Virus record (IMG/VR): IMGVR_UViG_2795386114_000001
Coordinates: 28,783-92,782 of that record
Length of the DNA stretch: 64,000 bases
Reading direction: 5' to 3' (one strand)
From: a virus
Taxonomy: Duplodnaviria; Caudoviricetes
Part shown: positions 27,689 to 58,290 of the stretch, in pieces
Numbering within the stretch: the stretch's first letter is position 1
Layout: every line of letters begins with the position of its first letter
Notes under the pieces: model-generated
Told to the model about the DNA's origin: nothing
Database searches by the model: none
The model's input: the letters and a program-made list of their open reading frames with translations, nothing else
Position numbers and translations under genes: made by a program

Positions 27689-29587
27689 TCAAGAGGTGTT
27701 CCCCCTACTCCCCTGCGCCCCAGCGGCCGTGCCCGAATCGTCGTCCTCCAGGTCGTCGAGGTGGTCCCCGACGGCGGGCAGGACGACGGCCGGGGTCTCG
27801 GGCTCGTCGGGTGCCTGCCGGCCGAGGAACGCGGCAACCTCGTCCGGGTTTCCGAGGGCGTCAGCAAGGTCTCGGGCTTCCGTGAAGGAGCGGGCGTCAA
27901 TCCGCTTGATCTCCTCTTCGGCGTCCTCGATGGGCCAGCCGATCTCCTGCAACCTGCGGATCGCGGTCTCCAGGGAGATGAGGCCGGCCTTGCGGGCGGT
28001 GGCGACTTCCTCGAGGACCGCTGTCTTGTCCGTCGGGGTGTAGGCGCCGCGGGTCAGCTTCGCGGGGAGGACGGGGAGGCCGATCCAGTCGGGGTGCTGT
28101 CCGGCCTGGAAGAGGCGTTGCACGAACTTGGGGAGGAGCCGGTCGGCGTGGTCGCGGGCGAGGCGCATGCCGGAGATCAGGGAATCGAGCGGGCCGAGGG
28201 CGAGCTCGAGCTGGTAGCCGGAGGTGAACTGGGCGGGGTCGGCGGTGCCGAGGGCGACGGCGGGGAGCCGGGCGGTGCTGGCGGCCCGGTCCTTCAGATC
28301 GTGGACTTGGTTGCGGAGTTCGGCGAGGTTGGCGCTGGTATCGACGGTTCCGATGGAGCCGCCTTCGCCGAGGGTGAAGACGATGCCGGGGCCGGCGGTG
28401 TACTGAGACTGTGGGGTGAGGGCCTTGCCCGCGATGCCGATCATCGGGGAGCCGGTGGTGGCGGAGGCGCGGGCGGAGTCGGTGTCGGAGCCGGACAGCT
28501 CGTCGAACACCTGCAACACCTTCGCCAGGCTGCTCTGCCCCCAGTGTTCGCCGGGCTCGGGGACGGTGTTGGGGACGTGGATGACCGGCACGAAGTCCTG
28601 ATACAGGTCGAGCTGGTCGAGGACCTCGCCCTGGCCGTTGGTCGCGAAGTGCGCCTTGTCCATGGGCAGGGAGTCGATGTCGACGGGGCCTTTGAGGTCG
28701 CCGAGCTCCCAGGTGGCGTCGGTGAGGTAGACGGTCTTGTAGGAGGGCTGCTCGGACCACGGGTACAGGCGGGTGATGGCGCCCTGCCGGTCGAGGGTGT
28801 CACCGCGGGCGAGGAGAGGCTGGGCGGGCTGGTCGTCGGTCGCCTCGGACATGACCGAGGCGCGCACGGGGCGGCCGGTGCGGTCGACGCCGTTGGCGGT
28901 CTGGGGGCGGATCCAGTCGAGGTGGTAGGTGATGCGGCGCAGCCTGGCGGGGAGGTGGCGGGCCTTGTCTTCGGGGAGTTCCCACGCGAAGTGGACGCGG
29001 TCGGGGAAGTCGGAGCCGTCGGAGTCCTCGTCGATGACGGGGAAATAGAAGCCCGGGTCGTAGGTGCGGACCCGTACGCGCTGTTTGTCGGCATCCCAGT
29101 GCAGCAGGTACACCCCGTCGCCGAGGGAAACGGCCTTGCGTTCCGTCTGGAGCAGGCGCATGGGGAGAAGTTCCTCGTCGGCCCACTCGCGCAGCAGGGT
29201 CTGCACCTTCTCCGCGGTCTCCGCATCGGTGGTGGTCTGGTCTCCGCCGGCCTGCTCGGCGCCGGGCACGGTGATGGTCTGCTCGTCGCCGAGGACGTGG
29301 CTGGTGACCGTGTCGACGAACATGGACGGGTCGCCGAACTCGCGACGGTCGCGGGCGGCGTCTCCGTCACGGAACGCGGTGAGCTCGGCAACCTGGTTGT
29401 TGTCGTAGGCGGTGAGCATCTTGTACGCGGCGAGGCGGCGTTCATCGGCGGCCGGCACCCAGGTGGCGTGGGCTTCGGGGAAGGCGCGCCGGTTGGGCAT
29501 GCCGAGGTTGTCGCTGTACAGGGGCTTGTAGTTCAGCCACGACCAGGCGTCGATGACGGCTGACTTGACGCCGGAGAAGAGGCCCAC
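27689..29587 (-). CDS. portal protein
   Basis: About 630 aa after the terminase; AVSLGDGVY, VIHVPN...WGQS, SGYQLELALGPL. Confidence 0.75.
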   Translation of the reverse strand: MGLFSGVKSAVIDAWSWLNYKPLYSDNLGMPNRRAFPEAHATWVPAADERRLAAYKMLTAYDNNQVAELTAFRDGDAARDRREFGDPSMFVDTVTSHVLGDEQTITVPGAEQAGGDQTTTDAETAEKVQTLLREWADEELLPMRLLQTERKAVSLGDGVYLLHWDADKQRVRVRTYDPGFYFPVIDEDSDGSDFPDRVHFAWELPEDKARHLPARLRRITYHLDWIRPQTANGVDRTGRPVRASVMSEATDDQPAQPLLARGDTLDRQGAITRLYPWSEQPSYKTVYLTDATWELGDLKGPVDIDSLPMDKAHFATNGQGEVLDQLDLYQDFVPVIHVPNTVPEPGEHWGQSSLAKVLQVFDELSGSDTDSARASATTGSPMIGIAGKALTPQSQYTAGPGIVFTLGEGGSIGTVDTSANLAELRNQVHDLKDRAASTARLPAVALGTADPAQFTSGYQLELALGPLDSLISGMRLARDHADRLLPKFVQRLFQAGQHPDWIGLPVLPAKLTRGAYTPTDKTAVLEEVATARKAGLISLETAIRRLQEIGWPIEDAEEEIKRIDARSFTEARDLADALGNPDEVAAFLGRQAPDEPETPAVVLPAVGDHLDDLEDDDSGTAAGAQGSRGNTS

Positions 29588-43826: not shown

Positions 43827-44558
43827 ATGAGCGGAAACACCGGGTATGCGGAGATCGCTACGTTTTTTCGGCAGAAGATCACAGACGGCACTCTCGCTCC
43901 CGGCGACAAGATGCCGACCCACAAGCAGGTGCGTGAGCAGTTCGGTGCGTCGATCGCGACCGTCAACCGGGCCTTCCAGATGTTGAAGGCAGAAGGTCTG
44001 ACGGCTGCTCGGGTCGGGCAGGGCACGACAGTCGCTGAGCGGCCCCGGGTAGCCGCGACGGCTACGGCCCGCCTGAGGCGGATCTCCCGAACCGGCCAGC
44101 CGTACGGGCCGAAGGAAAGGTCCGTTGACCACGACGCTCGGTTGCTGTCATGCGCCGATCCAGAGATCGCCGACGAACTGGGCGTCGAGCTTCATGACGA
44201 AATCCTGGTTCGCCGCCGCGTGTTCATGAACGGCAACGTTCGGACCATTGCCTCGTTCTCGTTCATCCAGCCGCGCGGATGGGCCGCTGTTCCGGAGATT
44301 TTGAGCCCGGAGCCGCTGGGGAGGTTCTGGCAGAAGGACTACACCGAGCGGACGGGACGCACCCCGGTCAAGCTCCCCGAACGGCAAAGTGCTCGTCTGG
44401 CGTACCCGTACGAGCTGGCGATGCTCGGCGTGGACTCGCCTCCCAACGCGGCTGTCCCAGTTCTCGTCCTGGCGAACGTCTTCCACGACGAAGATGGGCC
44501 GCTGGAGTGCTGGCGGGACGTCTATGCGCCCGGCTTGTGGCGAGTGGATGAGCAGTAA
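43827..44558 (+). CDS. GntR/HutC family repressor (KorA/TraR-like)
   Basis: GYAEIATFFRQKITDGTLAPGDKMPT...ATVNRAFQMLKAEGL..GQGT plus UTRA domain; divergent from the transfer operon. Confidence 0.88.
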   Translation: MSGNTGYAEIATFFRQKITDGTLAPGDKMPTHKQVREQFGASIATVNRAFQMLKAEGLTAARVGQGTTVAERPRVAATATARLRRISRTGQPYGPKERSVDHDARLLSCADPEIADELGVELHDEILVRRRVFMNGNVRTIASFSFIQPRGWAAVPEILSPEPLGRFWQKDYTERTGRTPVKLPERQSARLAYPYELAMLGVDSPPNAAVPVLVLANVFHDEDGPLECWRDVYAPGLWRVDEQ

Positions 44559-48639: not shown

Positions 48640-49797
48640 ATGCAGCTCAGGTACAACTTCCGCGTCTACCCGACGCCCGGCCAGCGCACGGCGCTCGCCC
48701 GGACGTTCGGCTGCGCACGGGTGGTGTACAACGACGCACTCCGCATCCGGCAGGACGCACACAAGCAGGACCTGCCGTTCCCGAAGACCGGCGACCTGTC
48801 CAAGACGCTGATCACGCAGGCCAAGCGCACCCCCGAACGGGCGTGGCTGTCCAACGCCCCGGTCGGTGTCATGCAGCAAGCCCTGCGCGACCTCGACACT
48901 GCGTACCGGAACTTCTTCGACTCCCTCTCCGGGAAAAGGAAGGGGCCGAAGATCGGTGCGCCCCGGTTCAAGTCAAAGCGGGACAACCGGCAGGTCGCCC
49001 GCTACACCAAGTCGGACTCCTTTCGTGTCCTGCCGAACGGGAAGCTGCGCCTGCCCAAGGTCGGCGAGATCTCCGTCCGCTGGTCCCGCAAGCTGCCGTC
49101 GGATCCGTCGTCGGTGACGGTCATCAAGGACGCAGCGGGACGGTACTTCGCGAGCTTCGTCGTGACGACCGACCCGTCCGAGGCGCTGCCCGAGACGACT
49201 GGCGAGGTGGGCATAGACCTCGGCCTCACCCACTTCGCCGTCATGTCCGACGGCCGCAAGATCTCCTCGCCAAAGTTCTTGCGCCGTGCCGAACGCAAGC
49301 TACGCAAAGCGCAGCAAGCCCTCTCCCGCAAGGCGAAGGGCAGCAACAACCGCAAGAAGGCCGTTGCCCGCGTGGCGCGGCTGCACGCCCAAGTGGCCGA
49401 CACCCGGCGGGACCACCACCACAAGCTCTCCACCACGTTGATCCGCGAGAACCAAGCGGTGTACGTCGAGGACCTGTCGGTGAAGGGTCTCGCCCGCACG
49501 CGGCTCGCGAAATCCGTGCACGACGCCGGATGGGCTCAGTTCACGACCATGTTGGAGTACAAGGCGACCCGGTACGGGCGGACCTTCGGGAAGATCGACC
49601 GCTGGCTTCCGTCGTCTCAGACCTGCCACGTCTGCATGGTCATCGACGGGCCCAAGCCCCTCAACGTCCGCGAGTGGACGTGCGGGGCATGCCAGGCCAC
49701 CCACGACCGGGACGTCAACGCGGCCCGCATCGTCTTGGCCGCCGGACGGGCGGACAAGGAAAACGCCTGCGGAGGGACCGTAAGCCCTCCCGTCTGA
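48640..49797 (+). CDS. tnpB: RNA-guided endonuclease TnpB
   Basis: RYNFRVYPT..FGCARVVYN HTH; RuvC GIDLG / VEDL / HDRDVNAA; zinc finger CHVC...CGAC. Confidence 0.93.
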   Translation: MQLRYNFRVYPTPGQRTALARTFGCARVVYNDALRIRQDAHKQDLPFPKTGDLSKTLITQAKRTPERAWLSNAPVGVMQQALRDLDTAYRNFFDSLSGKRKGPKIGAPRFKSKRDNRQVARYTKSDSFRVLPNGKLRLPKVGEISVRWSRKLPSDPSSVTVIKDAAGRYFASFVVTTDPSEALPETTGEVGIDLGLTHFAVMSDGRKISSPKFLRRAERKLRKAQQALSRKAKGSNNRKKAVARVARLHAQVADTRRDHHHKLSTTLIRENQAVYVEDLSVKGLARTRLAKSVHDAGWAQFTTMLEYKATRYGRTFGKIDRWLPSSQTCHVCMVIDGPKPLNVREWTCGACQATHDRDVNAARIVLAAGRADKENACGGTVSPPV

Positions 49798-53292: not shown

Positions 53293-54429
53293 TCAGGCCG
53301 CGGACTCCTCCGGAGCCTCCGCAGCTAACGGCCCACCATCACCCTCGTCGATCAGCCGGTCCGGCGACAACGCCCACTTGTACGTCAGGCCCTGCACCGA
53401 CGACGCCCCCAACAGGGCCTTCAGCTCGTTGATCTCCACACCCACCGTGCGCAGACTGATCCCCATCCGGGCCGCGATCGCCTTCTGATCCCGCTCCGCA
53501 GCCAGCTCCCGCATGATCTCCCGCTGCCGGGGAGTCATCCGGGCTGCGCCGCCCGGACCGGTCACCGTGTCCACCCACTGCCGCGGCTTCCGCCCGGGCG
53601 CTTCACCGAACCACGGATCCGCCCTGCCCCACTTCGATTCGAACTCCGCCCCGATGTAGGCGACCATCGCCCGGTCCGTGATCTGCCACGCCGCGAACTC
53701 GGGTGCATTCGGCACCAGATGGTTGGAGATGAACGCGACCCGGCGGTCGACGACGATGCACCGCTCGAACGCTCCGGGCATAGTCCGGTACTCGGCGGCT
53801 TTGCCGACCTGACGGTGCGACATCGTCCGGGCGTATTCCGCCGTCACCGGGTTGTCCCGCACGGTCGCCAGATACAGGGTGCGCATCGTGACCCCGCGGT
53901 CCAGGGCGGCAGTGTCCCGGCGGACCGTTTCTGCGAGCTGGTCGGGCCGGCGCGGGCCCCCTGGGTGTGCGGCGAGGATTTCCCACTGGGCGGAGCCCAC
54001 CACGTCCTCCAGGCGGGCCAGCACGGTGGGCTGGTCGCCGAGGTACTCGGCGCCGCCTCCGGACAGCAACTGGGCGCGCTGGTACAGCTCGGCGAGTTCG
54101 TCCGCGTCCGTGTGCAGAGTGCGCAAGCGGGCGGCACGCACCTCGACTTCGAGGAGCTCGGCCTCGAGGACGCGGCGCGCCACGGTCTCCGGATTCAGCA
54201 CGAGCGGTCTGTTTTCGTGGTCCGGGTCCCGCTTCACGAACCGGGCCTCGACGAGTTCGTCAACGAATACCTGATCCGCGTCGCACAGGGTTTGACCGGT
54301 CGTCAACAGGCCAAACACGCGTATCGCGTCGGGGGACAGGCCGCTGCACTCGCGTCCCGTGTTTCCTATGGCCAAAGGTCTGAGTCCTCGTCGAAAAGGG
54401 GTACCGGGCTGCACGTGTGCGCATTGCAC
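53293..54429 (-). CDS. TrmB/PLD-like sensor domain + LuxR HTH transcriptional regulator
   Basis: N-terminal wHTH-like and coiled-coil regions; EILAAHPGGPR, ALDRGVTMRTLY, CIVVDRRVAFI; C-terminal MTPRQREIMRELA..QKAIAARMGISLRTV; true start may be TTG near 54375; TTA codon at 53326-53328. Confidence 0.85.
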   Translation of the reverse strand: MQCAHVQPGTPFRRGLRPLAIGNTGRECSGLSPDAIRVFGLLTTGQTLCDADQVFVDELVEARFVKRDPDHENRPLVLNPETVARRVLEAELLEVEVRAARLRTLHTDADELAELYQRAQLLSGGGAEYLGDQPTVLARLEDVVGSAQWEILAAHPGGPRRPDQLAETVRRDTAALDRGVTMRTLYLATVRDNPVTAEYARTMSHRQVGKAAEYRTMPGAFERCIVVDRRVAFISNHLVPNAPEFAAWQITDRAMVAYIGAEFESKWGRADPWFGEAPGRKPRQWVDTVTGPGGAARMTPRQREIMRELAAERDQKAIAARMGISLRTVGVEINELKALLGASSVQGLTYKWALSPDRLIDEGDGGPLAAEAPEESAA

Positions 54430-54448
54430 AAGTGAGCATTCGGCAACA

Positions 54449-54636
54449 GTTGAGAATGAAATGAGCGTACGGCAAGTTGGTCATGGGGCGTCCCCCGGCG
54501 CTCGTACTCGCCATCCTCCTCCCGCACCAAAAGCGTCTAACTGCCAGGAACGACGTGAACCGGACGGAAGGATTCGCAGCAGGATGTAGAGGACGGGAAA
54601 CCGGGGAGGACGCCCCGTTATTGTTTCATTCTCAAC
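54449..54636. promoter_or_regulatory. divergent promoter region with TTTCATTCTCAAC ahead of each gene
   Basis: GTTGAGAATGAAA at 54449-54461 is the exact reverse complement of TTTCATTCTCAAC at 54624-54636. Confidence 0.65.
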
Positions 54637-54657
54637 AACTGAAAGGGCTCACCGCCA

Positions 54658-54855
54658 ATGCCCACACGCATCCGCAAGCTTCTTGCCGCCCTGACCATCG
54701 CAGTTGCGGCCACCACCGGCCTCACCCTCGCCACCACGCCGGCCGCAGCCGACGAAATCACCGTCAACACCCCCGTCACCACCCTCGACACCCACTGGGG
54801 ACTCACGCCCGTCGACGTCACGACGGTCACTACCCTCGACACCCACTGGGGCTGA
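54658..54855 (+). CDS. secreted pre-peptide with two VTTLDTHWG repeats
   Basis: GAAAGGG RBS; Sec signal (RIRK, hydrophobic core, PAAA cleavage); mature part DEITVNTPVTTLDTHWG-LTPVDVTTVTTLDTHWG; 26-bp DNA repeat at 54775 and 54826. Confidence 0.8.
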   Translation: MPTRIRKLLAALTIAVAATTGLTLATTPAAADEITVNTPVTTLDTHWGLTPVDVTTVTTLDTHWG

Positions 54856-55155
54856 CACCGCCCCACCCACAAGCCGGCCCGGCAGCAAGCCCCCAGCGCG
54901 CTGCCGGGCCACCCGCCTGTCAGTGCCCCGTGGCACGCTGAACTGGCGCACCGGCTCGCTCCAGTCGGCGGGAGCGAGCCTTGCCACGCCAGGGGCCGTT
55001 GTCAGCGCCGCGTGCCACACTGAAAACGACCGCTCTGCCCCGCCACCCCCGTCGGGTCAGGGCGGTCACGCGTTTCGCTGCGGGCCGCCGACGTGCTGTG
55101 CCACGCTTCCTGTCGCAGCGCCCGCCCATTCCGGAGTAGTGGGCGGTCGCTGCCG

Positions 55156-56357: not shown

Positions 56358-56924
56358 TCAGGCGGTCGCCAGGTCGGTGCGCTTACCGCGGCCCGGTCGG
56401 TTGGCGATGGCCTTGCGGACGTCGCCGGCCAGGTACAGGGCCTGGGGGCGCTTCGACTCGGGATGCGGCCGGTACGCGAACGGCTTCAGCCCGAGCTTGG
56501 ACATCACACCGGACGCGGTCTTCGCCGGGTTCGCGGCCGTCGAGTTCAGCTCGTCCCGGCCGATGTCTTCCAGCGTCAGCGGCTCGTTGCGGTCGATGAT
56601 CTCCGCCAGGTCGATGTCCTCCACCATGGCCGCGAAGTCCAGGGCGCCGTCCTCGTCGACCGGGTAGCCGTCGAACTCGCCCTCGTCGGGCTGCCATGGG
56701 CCGATGAACTCATCACCGCACAGCGACACGTCGTCGGGCAGGGCCGCGTTGATGGCGTCCCGGTACTCGGCCTGGATGCGGGCGAGCGCGCCGCTCTCTT
56801 CGAGAAGGGTGCGCCAGTCGTCGTCTCCGCCGTTGATGTAGTCGAGGACGTCGGCGTCGGGGCTGGTGGAGTAGGTGTTGACGCGGTTGCACCAGGTGCC
56901 GTAGCTGGTGGTGGTGGTGGTCAT
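56358..56924 (-). CDS. acidic N-domain + C-terminal HTH-like DNA-binding protein
   Basis: GAGGGG RBS; LTLEDIG...KTASGVMSKLG...LYLAGDVR..RPGRGKRTDL. Confidence 0.68.
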   Translation of the reverse strand: MTTTTTSYGTWCNRVNTYSTSPDADVLDYINGGDDDWRTLLEESGALARIQAEYRDAINAALPDDVSLCGDEFIGPWQPDEGEFDGYPVDEDGALDFAAMVEDIDLAEIIDRNEPLTLEDIGRDELNSTAANPAKTASGVMSKLGLKPFAYRPHPESKRPQALYLAGDVRKAIANRPGRGKRTDLATA

Positions 56925-56966
56925 GGCGGTGTCCCCCTCAGGTGGGTGGTTCCCTGTCCTGAAATA

Positions 56967-56995
56967 ACTATGACGTACGTACGTCGAAGTTGCAA
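56967..56995 (-). promoter_or_regulatory. promoter with palindromic operator
   Basis: Minus strand TTGCAA-N17-CATAGT; perfect palindrome GACGTACGTACGTC at 56972-56985. Confidence 0.7.
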
Positions 56996-57090
56996 CAGGG
57001 TTCACCCATCCGAGTGACAACCCCCCTCCTCCCCCTCGAAAAACCCCAGCTCAGCACACTGCCAGCAACCTGCCTGCGCCCGCGGAGCGC

Positions 57091-57426
57091 CTAGCCCCGC
57101 AGCCCGTTCTCCGGGTTGCACACCCCGCACATCTCCACCGTCAGCGCATCATCCTCCAACGCCAGCAGCACCTCACCACGCTCCAGGAATCCCGTCTCGC
57201 CCTTCCAGATCCCGCACCCGCCCCGGTGCAGGACCGTCCGACCGTCCCGGGCCGGCTCCAGCTTCCACCGCGCCTCCGCCCACGCCCGCTGCGCCTGCCG
57301 GTGCTCCCGCTCCGCCTCAGCCTCGAGCGTGCGGATCTTCTGCCGCGTGCTGTTGAGCTGCCAGTCCAGCCACTCTTCGAGGGCACGGAGCTTGGCGAGG
57401 CGTTCCGCAGGGGGCATGTCGTTCAC
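57091..57426 (-). CDS. DUF6233-like protein
   Basis: LRALEEWLDWQL..., WKLEP..VLHRGGC...CGVCNPE; leaderless GTG start. Confidence 0.7.
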   Translation of the reverse strand: MNDMPPAERLAKLRALEEWLDWQLNSTRQKIRTLEAEAEREHRQAQRAWAEARWKLEPARDGRTVLHRGGCGIWKGETGFLERGEVLLALEDDALTVEMCGVCNPENGLRG

Positions 57427-57439
57427 GTGTTCGATCCTA
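57419..57439 (-). promoter_or_regulatory. LexA (SOS) box overlapping the -10 and start codon
   Basis: Minus strand TAGGAT then TCGAAC-ACGT-GAACGA, fitting the actinobacterial TCGAAC-N4-GNNCGA pattern. Confidence 0.6.
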
Positions 57440-57639
57440 TGGGCATGAAAAAAGGGCCCGCTACCTGGCGTGATGCCAGACAGCGGACCCGACCCGCAAC
57501 AGGGCGCCCCCCTCGGTGACGGTGACAGCACCGTACGCCCCGCCCCACGCAAAAAGGAACGGCCCGTCGCCCCTTTCCCAGAGACGACGAGCCGTCCAGC
57601 AGCCGTTCGCAGCTCGCTGCGTACCGGCACCGTACCCGC

Positions 57640-58290
57640 CTACCCGCCCGCCCCGTAAGGCCGCAGCACCGCATCCACCCCGGCCGCCACCTCCCGCGAC
57701 CGAGACCACGACCAGCCAGCCGGCGCAGCACGCAACACCCGCCGCACCTGATCGGCCCCGACGACCTGCACCATCCCGGCCGCCGTCGCCGCCTGAAGGT
57801 GACCGCCCCGCACTGTGGAGCCGTGGACCACCAGCAGCGGCCACACCGCCACACCGGGCATGCCGAGCGCCTGGCCGACCAGCAGCGCGTACCGGGCCAC
57901 CTTCTCCGCTTCACCGTGCCGGTCCTCCACCCCACAGCACAGCCGGCCACCATCGGCGTGCGTATCCCGCCCGGCATGCCAGCGCTTCGTGTCCGCAACC
58001 ACCACCGCGGTACCGCACGGGGAGACGAGCACGTGGTCGAGGTTGAAGCGGCGGCCCGCCAACCGCCGGTCGTGGCGGATCCGCCAGCCCCGTAATCGCA
58101 GCGGCCAAACGATCCGGGCCGTCTTCCTCTCGTACCGGCCACCGAGCTCCCACAAGGCCGCCTGGGCGTCCGCACGCCCCGCCTCCGGGTTCAGGCCCAC
58201 CCACGCCGTCACGCGCCGCCACGGGCCCCGTCGGGCGTGCGCACGAAGTCGCGCAGCCTCACGCTCCGCCGAGTTCCGAAACGCGGTCAC
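57640..58290 (-). CDS. NERD nuclease-related domain protein
   Basis: GGRYERKTA, WRIRHD, NLDHVLVSP, VADTKRW; TTA codon at 58093-58095. Confidence 0.8.
   Translation of the reverse strand: MTAFRNSAEREAARLRAHARRGPWRRVTAWVGLNPEAGRADAQAALWELGGRYERKTARIVWPLRLRGWRIRHDRRLAGRRFNLDHVLVSPCGTAVVVADTKRWHAGRDTHADGGRLCCGVEDRHGEAEKVARYALLVGQALGMPGVAVWPLLVVHGSTVRGGHLQAATAAGMVQVVGADQVRRVLRAAPAGWSWSRSREVAAGVDAVLRPYGAGG

Follow-up and report, generated by a model that had tools for sequence, protein, structure and literature searches.

A Conserved Regulator, Structured RNA and Putatively Secreted Pro-peptide in Temperate Elements of Streptomyces: A Candidate Peptide Communication Module

Main Finding

Genome analysis of a 64,000-nucleotide (nt) stretch of the virus record IMGVR_UViG_2795386114_000001 (positions 28,783 to 92,782 of that record; this whole stretch is called the window hereafter, and all positions refer to it) led to a module of three parts, namely a regulator gene, a structured RNA and a divergent open reading frame (ORF) for a small, putatively secreted pro-peptide ending in a D-x-x-W(-G) motif. 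Judged by comparison across loci, the module is real and widely conserved in temperate elements of Streptomyces. Its anatomy recurs, its three parts are conserved and linked, its peptide motif is under selection, and motif and regulator vary together. We consider the evidence evenly balanced as to whether it is a peptide communication system, resembling arbitrium and the RRNPP systems in its working and using an unrelated receptor that is not a tetratricopeptide repeat (TPR) protein. The core claim, that the peptide is the ligand of the regulator, likewise has an about even chance of being true.

Linkage of the Regulator with a Putatively Secreted D-x-x-W(-G) Pro-peptide

Loci were retrieved by regulator homology, and the upstream DNA of each was read for a divergent ORF with a signal peptide. 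The first-pass annotation, made from the letters of the window, had proposed checking homologues of the regulator for an adjacent signal-peptide ORF with D-x-x-W(-G) repeats, and such an ORF proved to be consistently present across the locus sets. Specifically, 8/10 plasmid loci and 10 of the 12 genome-contig loci have a divergent ORF that begins with a signal peptide and ends in D[TS]xWG or a near variant of it. The same type of ORF, with a D[TS]xWG end, occurs in all viral loci (7/7; two duplicate genome loci) and in 6/6 metagenome loci for which upstream DNA and a full-length match were available, while four of six more distant plasmid loci (regulator identity 32-37%) also carry a signal-peptide ORF with the motif. 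L023 and L024 were treated as duplicates of L011 and L012, L045 was uncounted because only its LuxR part matches, and nine metagenome loci lacking upstream DNA were left unscored. Concerning the searches themselves, a scan of genome contigs with a single regulator sequence gave no match and an alignment-based scan gave the 12 loci; tblastn of the peptide against plasmids gave no match either, probably due to the low-complexity filter, and the peptides were found by reading the loci.

Across these sets, an ORF with one to four copies of D-[TSP]-x-W(-G), the last one at the C-terminus, adjoins regulator homologues down to 32% identity. The module is spread over phage-plasmids, other plasmids, chromosomes and the integrase-bearing phage Chymera, an isolated temperate phage of 34.7 kb in which the pair adjoins the integrase and the peptide carries DPGWG twice. 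DTCWC, DSVWG and a DSVW lacking the final G are among the variants at the genome loci, and distant plasmid loci carry either two copies of DSAWG or DTNWG together with DSDWG.

Some loci have features of their own. At L008 and L009, two loci on linear plasmids (220 kb and 92 kb; regulator identity 43%), a DUF4344 metallopeptidase gene lies downstream and a helix-turn-helix (HTH) gene is divergent. In L052, L053 and L055 (plasmids of ~130 kb), the DSAWG-type module adjoins a gene for a sigma-70-family sigma factor and a conserved ORF of ~70 amino acids (aa). L018 (2,125 bp, labelled Leifsonia sp.) carries DSVWG twice beside a regulator with 36% identity and is the only module outside Streptomyces by label, for which, on so short a contig, a contaminant may be responsible.

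The pro-peptide of the window was initially described as a 65-aa ORF in which a Sec signal peptide is followed by two 17-aa units, both with VTTLDTHWG at the end. The ORF is located at 54658-54855 (+), and its translation confirms these units as well as the position of the second one flush with the stop codon. Its N-terminal part passes from a basic N-region through a hydrophobic core to a predicted cleavage site between AAA and D, both the Sec signal peptide and the site having been judged from the sequence by eye. After this site come DEITVNTPVTTLDTHWG and LTPVDVTTVTTLDTHWG, 17 aa each, and then the stop codon. Many homologous precursors have RR in the N-region, and for this reason export by the Tat route may be possible. 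A 51-nt period had also been claimed, and this held in part: two 51-nt units do encode the protein repeat, but Tandem Repeats Finder reported no such period, and the repeat is therefore a feature of the protein and not a DNA tandem array. The two units have 34 of 51 bases in common, and their last 27 nt, as read from the printed units, show two differences, both synonymous. The G+C content at third codon positions is 0.85. An antisense ORF at 54618-54872 is also open, as is usual in DNA so rich in G+C; the signal peptide, the motif and the stop position are kept across homologues in the + frame only.

A profile search from 16 precursors returned 134 proteins, of which 121 were examined. D[TS]xW forms the end of 116 of them, with a final G in 109, without it in 6 and with GA in one. 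The most frequent ending is DTTWG (84 of 121), followed by DTAWG (17), DTTW (6) and DTGWG (4), while DSTWG, DSGWG, DTAWGA, DTHWG and DTYWG were found once each; four proteins have R in place of W and one has an unrelated ending. The motif is present once in 3 of the 121 precursors, twice in 52, three times in 64 and four times in 2. In the four R-for-W precursors (P0190, P0206, P0229 and P0243) the exchange affects only the last motif copy, which gives an xTRG end and leaves the copies before it intact; natural "mute" variants or errors in sequencing may explain them.

Besides the start Met, the D and W of the motif are the only invariant residues in an alignment of the 16 precursors. The signal peptide retains its form, and the spacers are free to differ in both length and sequence. 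Additionally, in 74 motif copies from 33 precursors Gly is encoded by four codons and Thr/Ser by several, and Trp is kept in 74/74. These varied codons together with the constant Trp indicate that selection acts on the protein motif. In form the ORF is like an RRNPP or arbitrium pro-peptide, from whose C-terminal part the mature peptide would be taken: it starts with a signal peptide, its last motif copy adjoins the stop codon, and both features are kept across loci. As far as sequence can tell, a short unit in variable copy number, placed at the extreme C-terminus of a precursor predicted to be exported, is the form that precursors of released signalling peptides take.

Co-variation of the Motif with the Regulator

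In a tree of 32 regulators (the frameshifted regulator of L005 was excluded from the trees), the motif classes follow clades, with support of 100/100 for DSVW(G), 99/95 for DTAWG and 100/99 for DTWWG. The regulator of the window is the longest end branch in the DTTWG group. A search for alignment columns that are conserved among DTTWG-type regulators and changed in the others singled out positions 149/150, which lie in helix 144-159 of the PLD-like domain described below; position 146 also co-varies with the peptide. R149-S150 is present in 15/15 regulators whose peptide has Thr at the variable position, including the DSTWG case and two sequences ~43% identical to that of the window. Residues other than R-S occupy these positions in 13/13 regulators whose peptide has A, G, H, W or C there. 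Residues 149/150 switch with the variable motif residue in 28/28 pairs, and on the tree both traits change three times, at the same places. This pattern suggests a receptor-ligand pair. The co-variation of regulator and adjacent peptide that the first-pass annotation had proposed to look for does exist, then, following the clades as well as residues 149/150, with only three independent changes behind it. Since three co-changes cannot reach significance, we read it as suggestive and not as proof.

A TrmB/PLD-like Regulator with a LuxR HTH

The regulator lies head to head with the pro-peptide ORF, as first described. Its likely start is the TTG at 54375, preceded by GAGGA 10 nt upstream; a GTG at 54429 (378 aa) is a less likely alternative. 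The domains first described, namely a TrmB-type winged HTH, a PLD-like domain lacking an obvious HKD motif and a LuxR HTH, were borne out by Pfam, AlphaFold2 and Foldseek. The AlphaFold2 model, built from 34 homologues, has a mean predicted local distance difference test score of 83.4. With Foldseek, the top ranks were taken by TrmBL2 (5bpi, E = 2e-11), TrmB (3qph, E = 2.5e-7), the PLD nuclease Nuc (1byr) and the TrmB sugar-binding domain (2f5t). Pfam gave 16.9 bits for TrmB against a cutoff of 22.2, and DUF7436 was likewise below its cutoff; the TrmB-type winged HTH, coiled coil and PLD-like domain are hence recognised by fold and remain sub-cutoff by Pfam sequence score. The helix of residues 62-104 is likely, in the model, to be a dimerising coiled coil as in TrmB. 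At the other end, the HTH belongs to the GerE/LuxR family of Pfam (PF00196, 30 bits against a gathering cutoff of 23.5, E = 3.9e-7), and its profile matches in the PDB are NarL, RhlR and GerE. The C-terminal sugar-binding subdomain of TrmB was not found, residues 262-360 being a disordered linker (262-276, between the PLD-like domain and the LuxR HTH in the AlphaFold2 model) followed by the LuxR HTH. According to the model, the regulator is a soluble protein that joins a TrmB-type N-terminal part to a LuxR HTH and in which two HTH domains flank the PLD-like domain.

Catalytic PLD domains have the motif HxK(x)4D. No H-x-K was detected in the 34 aligned regulators, which share instead the segment F203-E204-R205-x-I207-x-V209-D210 (C and V at the two x in the window) with invariant residues. 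Equating this segment with the HKD site is a reading of the sequence and not a structural superposition; with F-E-R-x-I-V-V-D in place of HKD, the PLD-like domain is very probably not catalytic. Concerning other families, no TPR family was found in a Pfam search of the regulator, AlphaFold2 and Foldseek giving TrmB/PLD-like and LuxR folds, and PADLOC assigned 0 families to the regulator, the peptide and five neighbours.

The Intergenic Region and Its Structured RNA

The ~280 nt between the two genes surpass the genes on either side by far in DNA conservation and contain a tandem palindrome and a structured RNA (Table 1), both absent from the first-pass annotation. The half-site GC pairs of the palindrome are invariant in 21/21 aligned loci, and it stands just upstream of the putative -35 and may serve as an operator bound by a protein. 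Elsewhere in the window only two matches with one mismatch were found, within the range of shuffled sequences, so that no regulon can be named. TTGAGA and CAAGTT form a putative promoter; a sigma-70 consensus scan of the region called none.

The RNA is one long irregular hairpin (folding z-score -3.5) with the conserved unpaired parts CUAACUGCCAGGAAC and AUUCGCAGCA, and a conserved apical loop with CUGCCAG sits atop stems that vary freely yet remain complementary. In single-sequence folds anchored on the conserved motifs, which provide pair counts and not a formal covariation test, compensatory base changes are seen: one pair of the closing helix is U-A 17 times, U-G 9 times and C-G once, the third helix has U-A 17, C-G 8 and U-G 2, and the helix formed by CAUCCUCCC has A-U 11, G-C 6, U-A 2, C-G 2 and G-U 1. 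RNAalifold on MAFFT alignments captured the closing helix and not the variable stems. The RNA folds about equally well on both strands; what points to the peptide-sense strand is a set of U-G pairs, 9 of them at a single position in the closing helix and a few elsewhere. Rfam 15 gave 0 matches at E up to 10 in 54300-54900. The U-rich tail after the closing helix is possibly a weak terminator, and the start codon of the peptide follows ~40 nt after the RNA.

The RNA is linked with both genes. Retrieval by its first 22 bases alone yielded a peptide ORF downstream in 13/13 viral contigs and, where upstream DNA was available, the regulator in 11/11. Neither this RNA nor the tandem palindrome turned up in motif searches of the DSVW, DSAWG and Chymera groups; by eye, other palindromes were seen in the same place in the DSVW group and in Chymera.

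Two further candidates in this region were rejected. A perfect, AT-rich inverted repeat of 13 nt, GTTGAGAATGAAA / TTTCATTCTCAAC, is located at 54449-54461 and 54624-54636, its arms 162 nt apart, 74 nt upstream of the regulator start and 21 nt upstream of the peptide start. Paired operators were considered here, but no comparable exact repeat was found in 30 other intergenic regions, and the repeat was therefore treated as specific to the window. An RNA-based replication origin, considered after the part of PMC7157519 available to us, was set aside, as the type phage ZL12 gave no regulator match and a single match, with 2 mismatches, to the first 17 bases of the RNA, with no module around that site.

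A search for sites complementary to the unpaired loops of the RNA gave as exact match only the RNA's own complement, plus many matches with 2 mismatches. One site at 57058-57068, upstream of a 220-aa ORF (56358-57020, -), is complementary to the apical loop with 1 mismatch in 11. Nearby, a G-rich ribosome-binding site at 57022-57033 (-) is complementary to the C-rich strand of the RNA. Together the two sites are a possible target, noted as a lead only.

The Element and Its Other Genes

The virus record comprises 92,782 bp with 95-bp terminal repeats and is rated complete, the window being part of it. Apart from phage genes (terminase, portal, tape measure and tail fibres), it encodes ParA, ParB, a WhiB-like protein, DciA, Rad52, a WYL protein and a cytosine methylase. 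The terminase shares 69% identity with its counterpart in Streptomyces phage ZL12 (plasmid-phage pZL12, GQ919031.1), and regulator homologues were repeatedly met on contigs or plasmids of 85-95 kb. The element is a pZL12-like phage-plasmid of 92.8 kb, and the phage context ascribed to the module at first reading is confirmed.

Among the other genes, an IS605-family OrfB/TnpB gene is located at 48640-49797 (+) within the phage-plasmid, encoding OrfB_IS605, a Cas12f1-like TNB domain and an HTH. At 43827-44558 (+), a gene for a GntR-family regulator, whose UTRA domain match is weak, is a second candidate control gene of the element. Near the module, DUF6233 and NERD nuclease-related genes (57091-58290, -) recur beside it in several plasmid loci and gave no PADLOC match.

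TABLE 1. Features of the module in the window.
Feature	Position	Strand	Basis
Regulator, 360 aa from TTG start	53293..54375	-	ORF; database form also 360 aa
C-terminal LuxR/GerE-type HTH, residues 282-341, four helices	53353..53532	-	Pfam GerE; PDB profile matches
PLD-like alpha/beta domain, residues 109-251, candidate sensor	53623..54051	-	Pfam DUF7436/TrmB sub-cutoff; Foldseek Nuc 1byr, TrmB 2f5t
Long helix, residues 62-104 (43 residues)	54064..54192	-	AlphaFold2; covered by TrmBL2/TrmB Foldseek alignments
N-terminal winged HTH, residues 15-59	54199..54333	-	AlphaFold2 secondary structure; Foldseek TrmBL2, TrmB
Tandem palindrome TGC-N8-GCA-N-TGC-N8-GCA, candidate operator	54410..54438		Only exact match in window
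Putative promoter TTGAGA-17 nt-CAAGTT, ends 6 nt before RNA	54450..54478	+	GTTGA and CAnnnT blocks, both conserved
Rod-shaped structured RNA, leader or small RNA, ~130 nt	54485..54616	+	Fold in window and 26 loci
U-rich tail after closing helix, GUUAUUGUUUCAUU, possible weak terminator	54617..54630	+	Terminator-like site, partly conserved
Signal peptide of pro-peptide, residues 1-31, predicted cleavage between AAA and D	54658..54750	+	Sequence read by eye
Repeat unit 1, 17 aa, DTHWG at 54787-54801	54751..54801	+	ORF and unit comparison
Repeat unit 2, 17 aa, DTHWG at 54838-54852, then stop codon	54802..54855	+	C-terminal motif conserved in family

Proposed Working and Alternative Explanations

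The working that we propose is as follows. The pro-peptide would be exported by means of its signal peptide, and extracellular proteases would cut it into short peptides with a D-T-H-W(-G) core, one to four copies from each precursor, the C-terminal copy needing no cut downstream. The peptide would build up with the density of cells carrying the element and be imported by the oligopeptide permease of the host. Inside the cell it would bind the PLD-like domain of the dimeric regulator near helix 144-159 and change the regulator's hold on the tandem palindrome, which separates the regulator gene from the promoter of RNA and peptide; a feedback loop would result. Via the RNA or other targets, the choice could then shift between plasmid carriage or lysogeny and lytic growth, with the RNA acting either as a leader that gates peptide synthesis or as a decision effector like aimX in arbitrium. 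TrmB binds its sugar effector through its PLD-like domain, and a sensor role of the same domain would fit this proposal.

Several points weigh against it. Export, cleavage, uptake and binding of the peptide, as well as the operator and the output, are steps that we infer, and no output gene was identified. Internal motif copies have no conserved preceding residue, so that no cleavage site can be named. TrmBL2, which ranked first by fold, has a PLD-like domain with no known ligand, and a sensor role of the regulator's domain is consequently not guaranteed. Clade-wise tracking of motif and regulator is expected from relatedness alone, and the 28 pairs amount to only three independent co-changes, one of them on well-supported branches, too few for a test. 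Finally, the linkage has exceptions: L008 and L009 have only an ORF ending in RRDSAWGC with no evident signal peptide, L015 has two internal motif copies and an altered C-terminus, no peptide ORF is found at L016 nor at L054, which adjoins a transposase, L056 is ambiguous, and the type phage ZL12 (L050/L051) gave no regulator match.

A site of action outside the cell, or a sensor other than the adjacent regulator, is in our view unlikely for the repeat peptide; the regulator would then only control its expression and sense something else. The peptide might in that case bind a membrane kinase of the host as its ligand, manipulate host development as a signal, or block the phage receptor and so exclude superinfection. 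A signal-peptide ORF paired with a regulator is equally expected for any regulated secreted product, no permease is encoded nearby, and TrmBL2 is not known to be a ligand sensor. On the other hand, the mature region is conserved only in a unit of 4-5 residues, present in one to four copies between free spacers, a form more in keeping with a short released peptide than with a folded effector. Moreover, a regulator that never meets the peptide would not be expected to switch residues 149/150 with the motif residue in every pair, even if only three independent changes underlie this.

The remaining alternatives shift the emphasis to other parts of the locus. We think it improbable that the functional unit consists of the structured RNA and the regulator, as a small RNA or leader controlling immunity or copy number, with the small ORF minor or dispensable. 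The RNA is more conserved in DNA than either gene and has compensatory changes, and some regulators lack an intact peptide; nevertheless, the peptide is retained without a recognisable RNA in the DSVW and DSAWG groups and in Chymera, and its motif is under selection at the protein level. A precursor of a modified peptide, that is, a ribosomally synthesised and post-translationally modified peptide (RiPP) or the like, for instance Trp-modified, or of an antimicrobial peptide, with its enzymes encoded elsewhere, seems very improbable to us. Some RiPP precursors do have multi-copy core peptides and an invariant Trp, and several neighbours are of unknown function. Against this, the ORF begins with a secretion signal peptide instead of a RiPP leader, and the initial statement that no modifying enzyme or transporter is adjacent was upheld: the neighbours have no Pfam enzyme or transporter domain, no conserved modifying enzyme adjoins the module, and the downstream neighbours differ between loci.

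The peptide communication reading can be put in a fuller form. It would be the first peptide communication of actinobacterial phages and plasmids and independent of RRNPP, with D-x-x-W(-G) pheromones released from multi-copy precursors, a TrmB/PLD-like-LuxR receptor whose helix 144-159 sets the pherotype, and a new RNA that decides between carriage and lytic growth, on Streptomyces phage-plasmids, integrating phages, large plasmids and chromosomal islands. This combination we put forward tentatively, as a possibility somewhat short of an even prospect. To our knowledge, phage peptide signalling is so far known from Bacillus and its relatives, where it relies on TPR receptors. Titles and abstracts on Streptomyces, arbitrium, phage communication, TrmB and LuxR, a scope outside which the pZL12 paper and all supplements lay, revealed no such system, and literature matches to the pentapeptide strings were titles on unrelated subjects only. 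The main text of a 2026 review on phage communication contains no word beginning with Streptomyces, Actinobacteri or Actinomyc (PMC13389391), and signals of actinomycetes are typically small molecules, as stated in the part of a further source available to us (PMC10075063). If true, the proposal would provide a second, unrelated receptor fold for intracellular sensing of peptides, add a new structured RNA and open a way to study the choice between carriage and lysis in phage-plasmids of antibiotic producers. Ready test systems exist in S. ambofaciens ATCC 23877, whose pSAM1 (L010) encodes a precursor with three copies of DTAWG, and in phage Chymera with S. venezuelae as its host. Apart from this, cognate pairs of peptide and receptor, with the natural pherotypes x = T, A, G, H, W, C and V, could serve as orthogonal switches in Streptomyces engineering.

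Comparison with Known Systems

AfsS of Streptomyces resembles the pro-peptide in being a small protein with short repeats of the T-x-x-D-x-H type. AfsS is not known to have a signal peptide, and membership in its family was rejected on score, the match to NCBIfam NF053616 being 16.2 bits against a cutoff of 60. With the LuxR/GerE family (NarL, RhlR and GerE) the regulator shares a C-terminal HTH that is a member, whereas it has no receiver or autoinducer-binding domain and its sensor part has another fold. The archaeal regulators TrmB and TrmBL2 are alike in the N-terminal winged HTH, the long helix and the PLD-like domain by fold (5bpi, 3qph, 2f5t). The structure of TrmB includes a C-terminal sugar-binding subdomain, in place of which the present regulator has a LuxR HTH; further differences are the bacterial host, the phage-borne gene and the candidate ligand, a peptide and not a sugar.

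Rap-Phr, PlcR-PapR and the other RRNPP systems of Firmicutes plasmids and phages are likewise two-gene cassettes of a pro-peptide and an intracellular receptor. They regulate behaviour by density and occur on mobile elements, according to the part of PMC10075063 available to us. The present receptor is related to theirs neither in sequence nor in fold and has no TPR repeats, and the phylum is Actinomycetota; as it lacks TPR repeats, the module is not a member of RRNPP or arbitrium. Specifically, in the arbitrium of Bacillus phages (AimR-AimP-AimX) the receptor AimR is a TPR protein, unlike the TrmB/PLD-like receptor with a LuxR HTH, and the module described here also differs in its divergent and not tandem genes, the RNA upstream of the peptide ORF, the repeated motif and the actinomycete host, and in being known from sequence alone. 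The likeness to arbitrium nevertheless extends to several features: the module is phage-borne, its small signal-peptide ORF has the putative functional unit at the very C-terminus and adjoins the gene of a predicted cytoplasmic DNA-binding receptor, peptide variants follow receptor lineages, a non-coding RNA forms part of the module and, in Chymera, the module adjoins the integrase.

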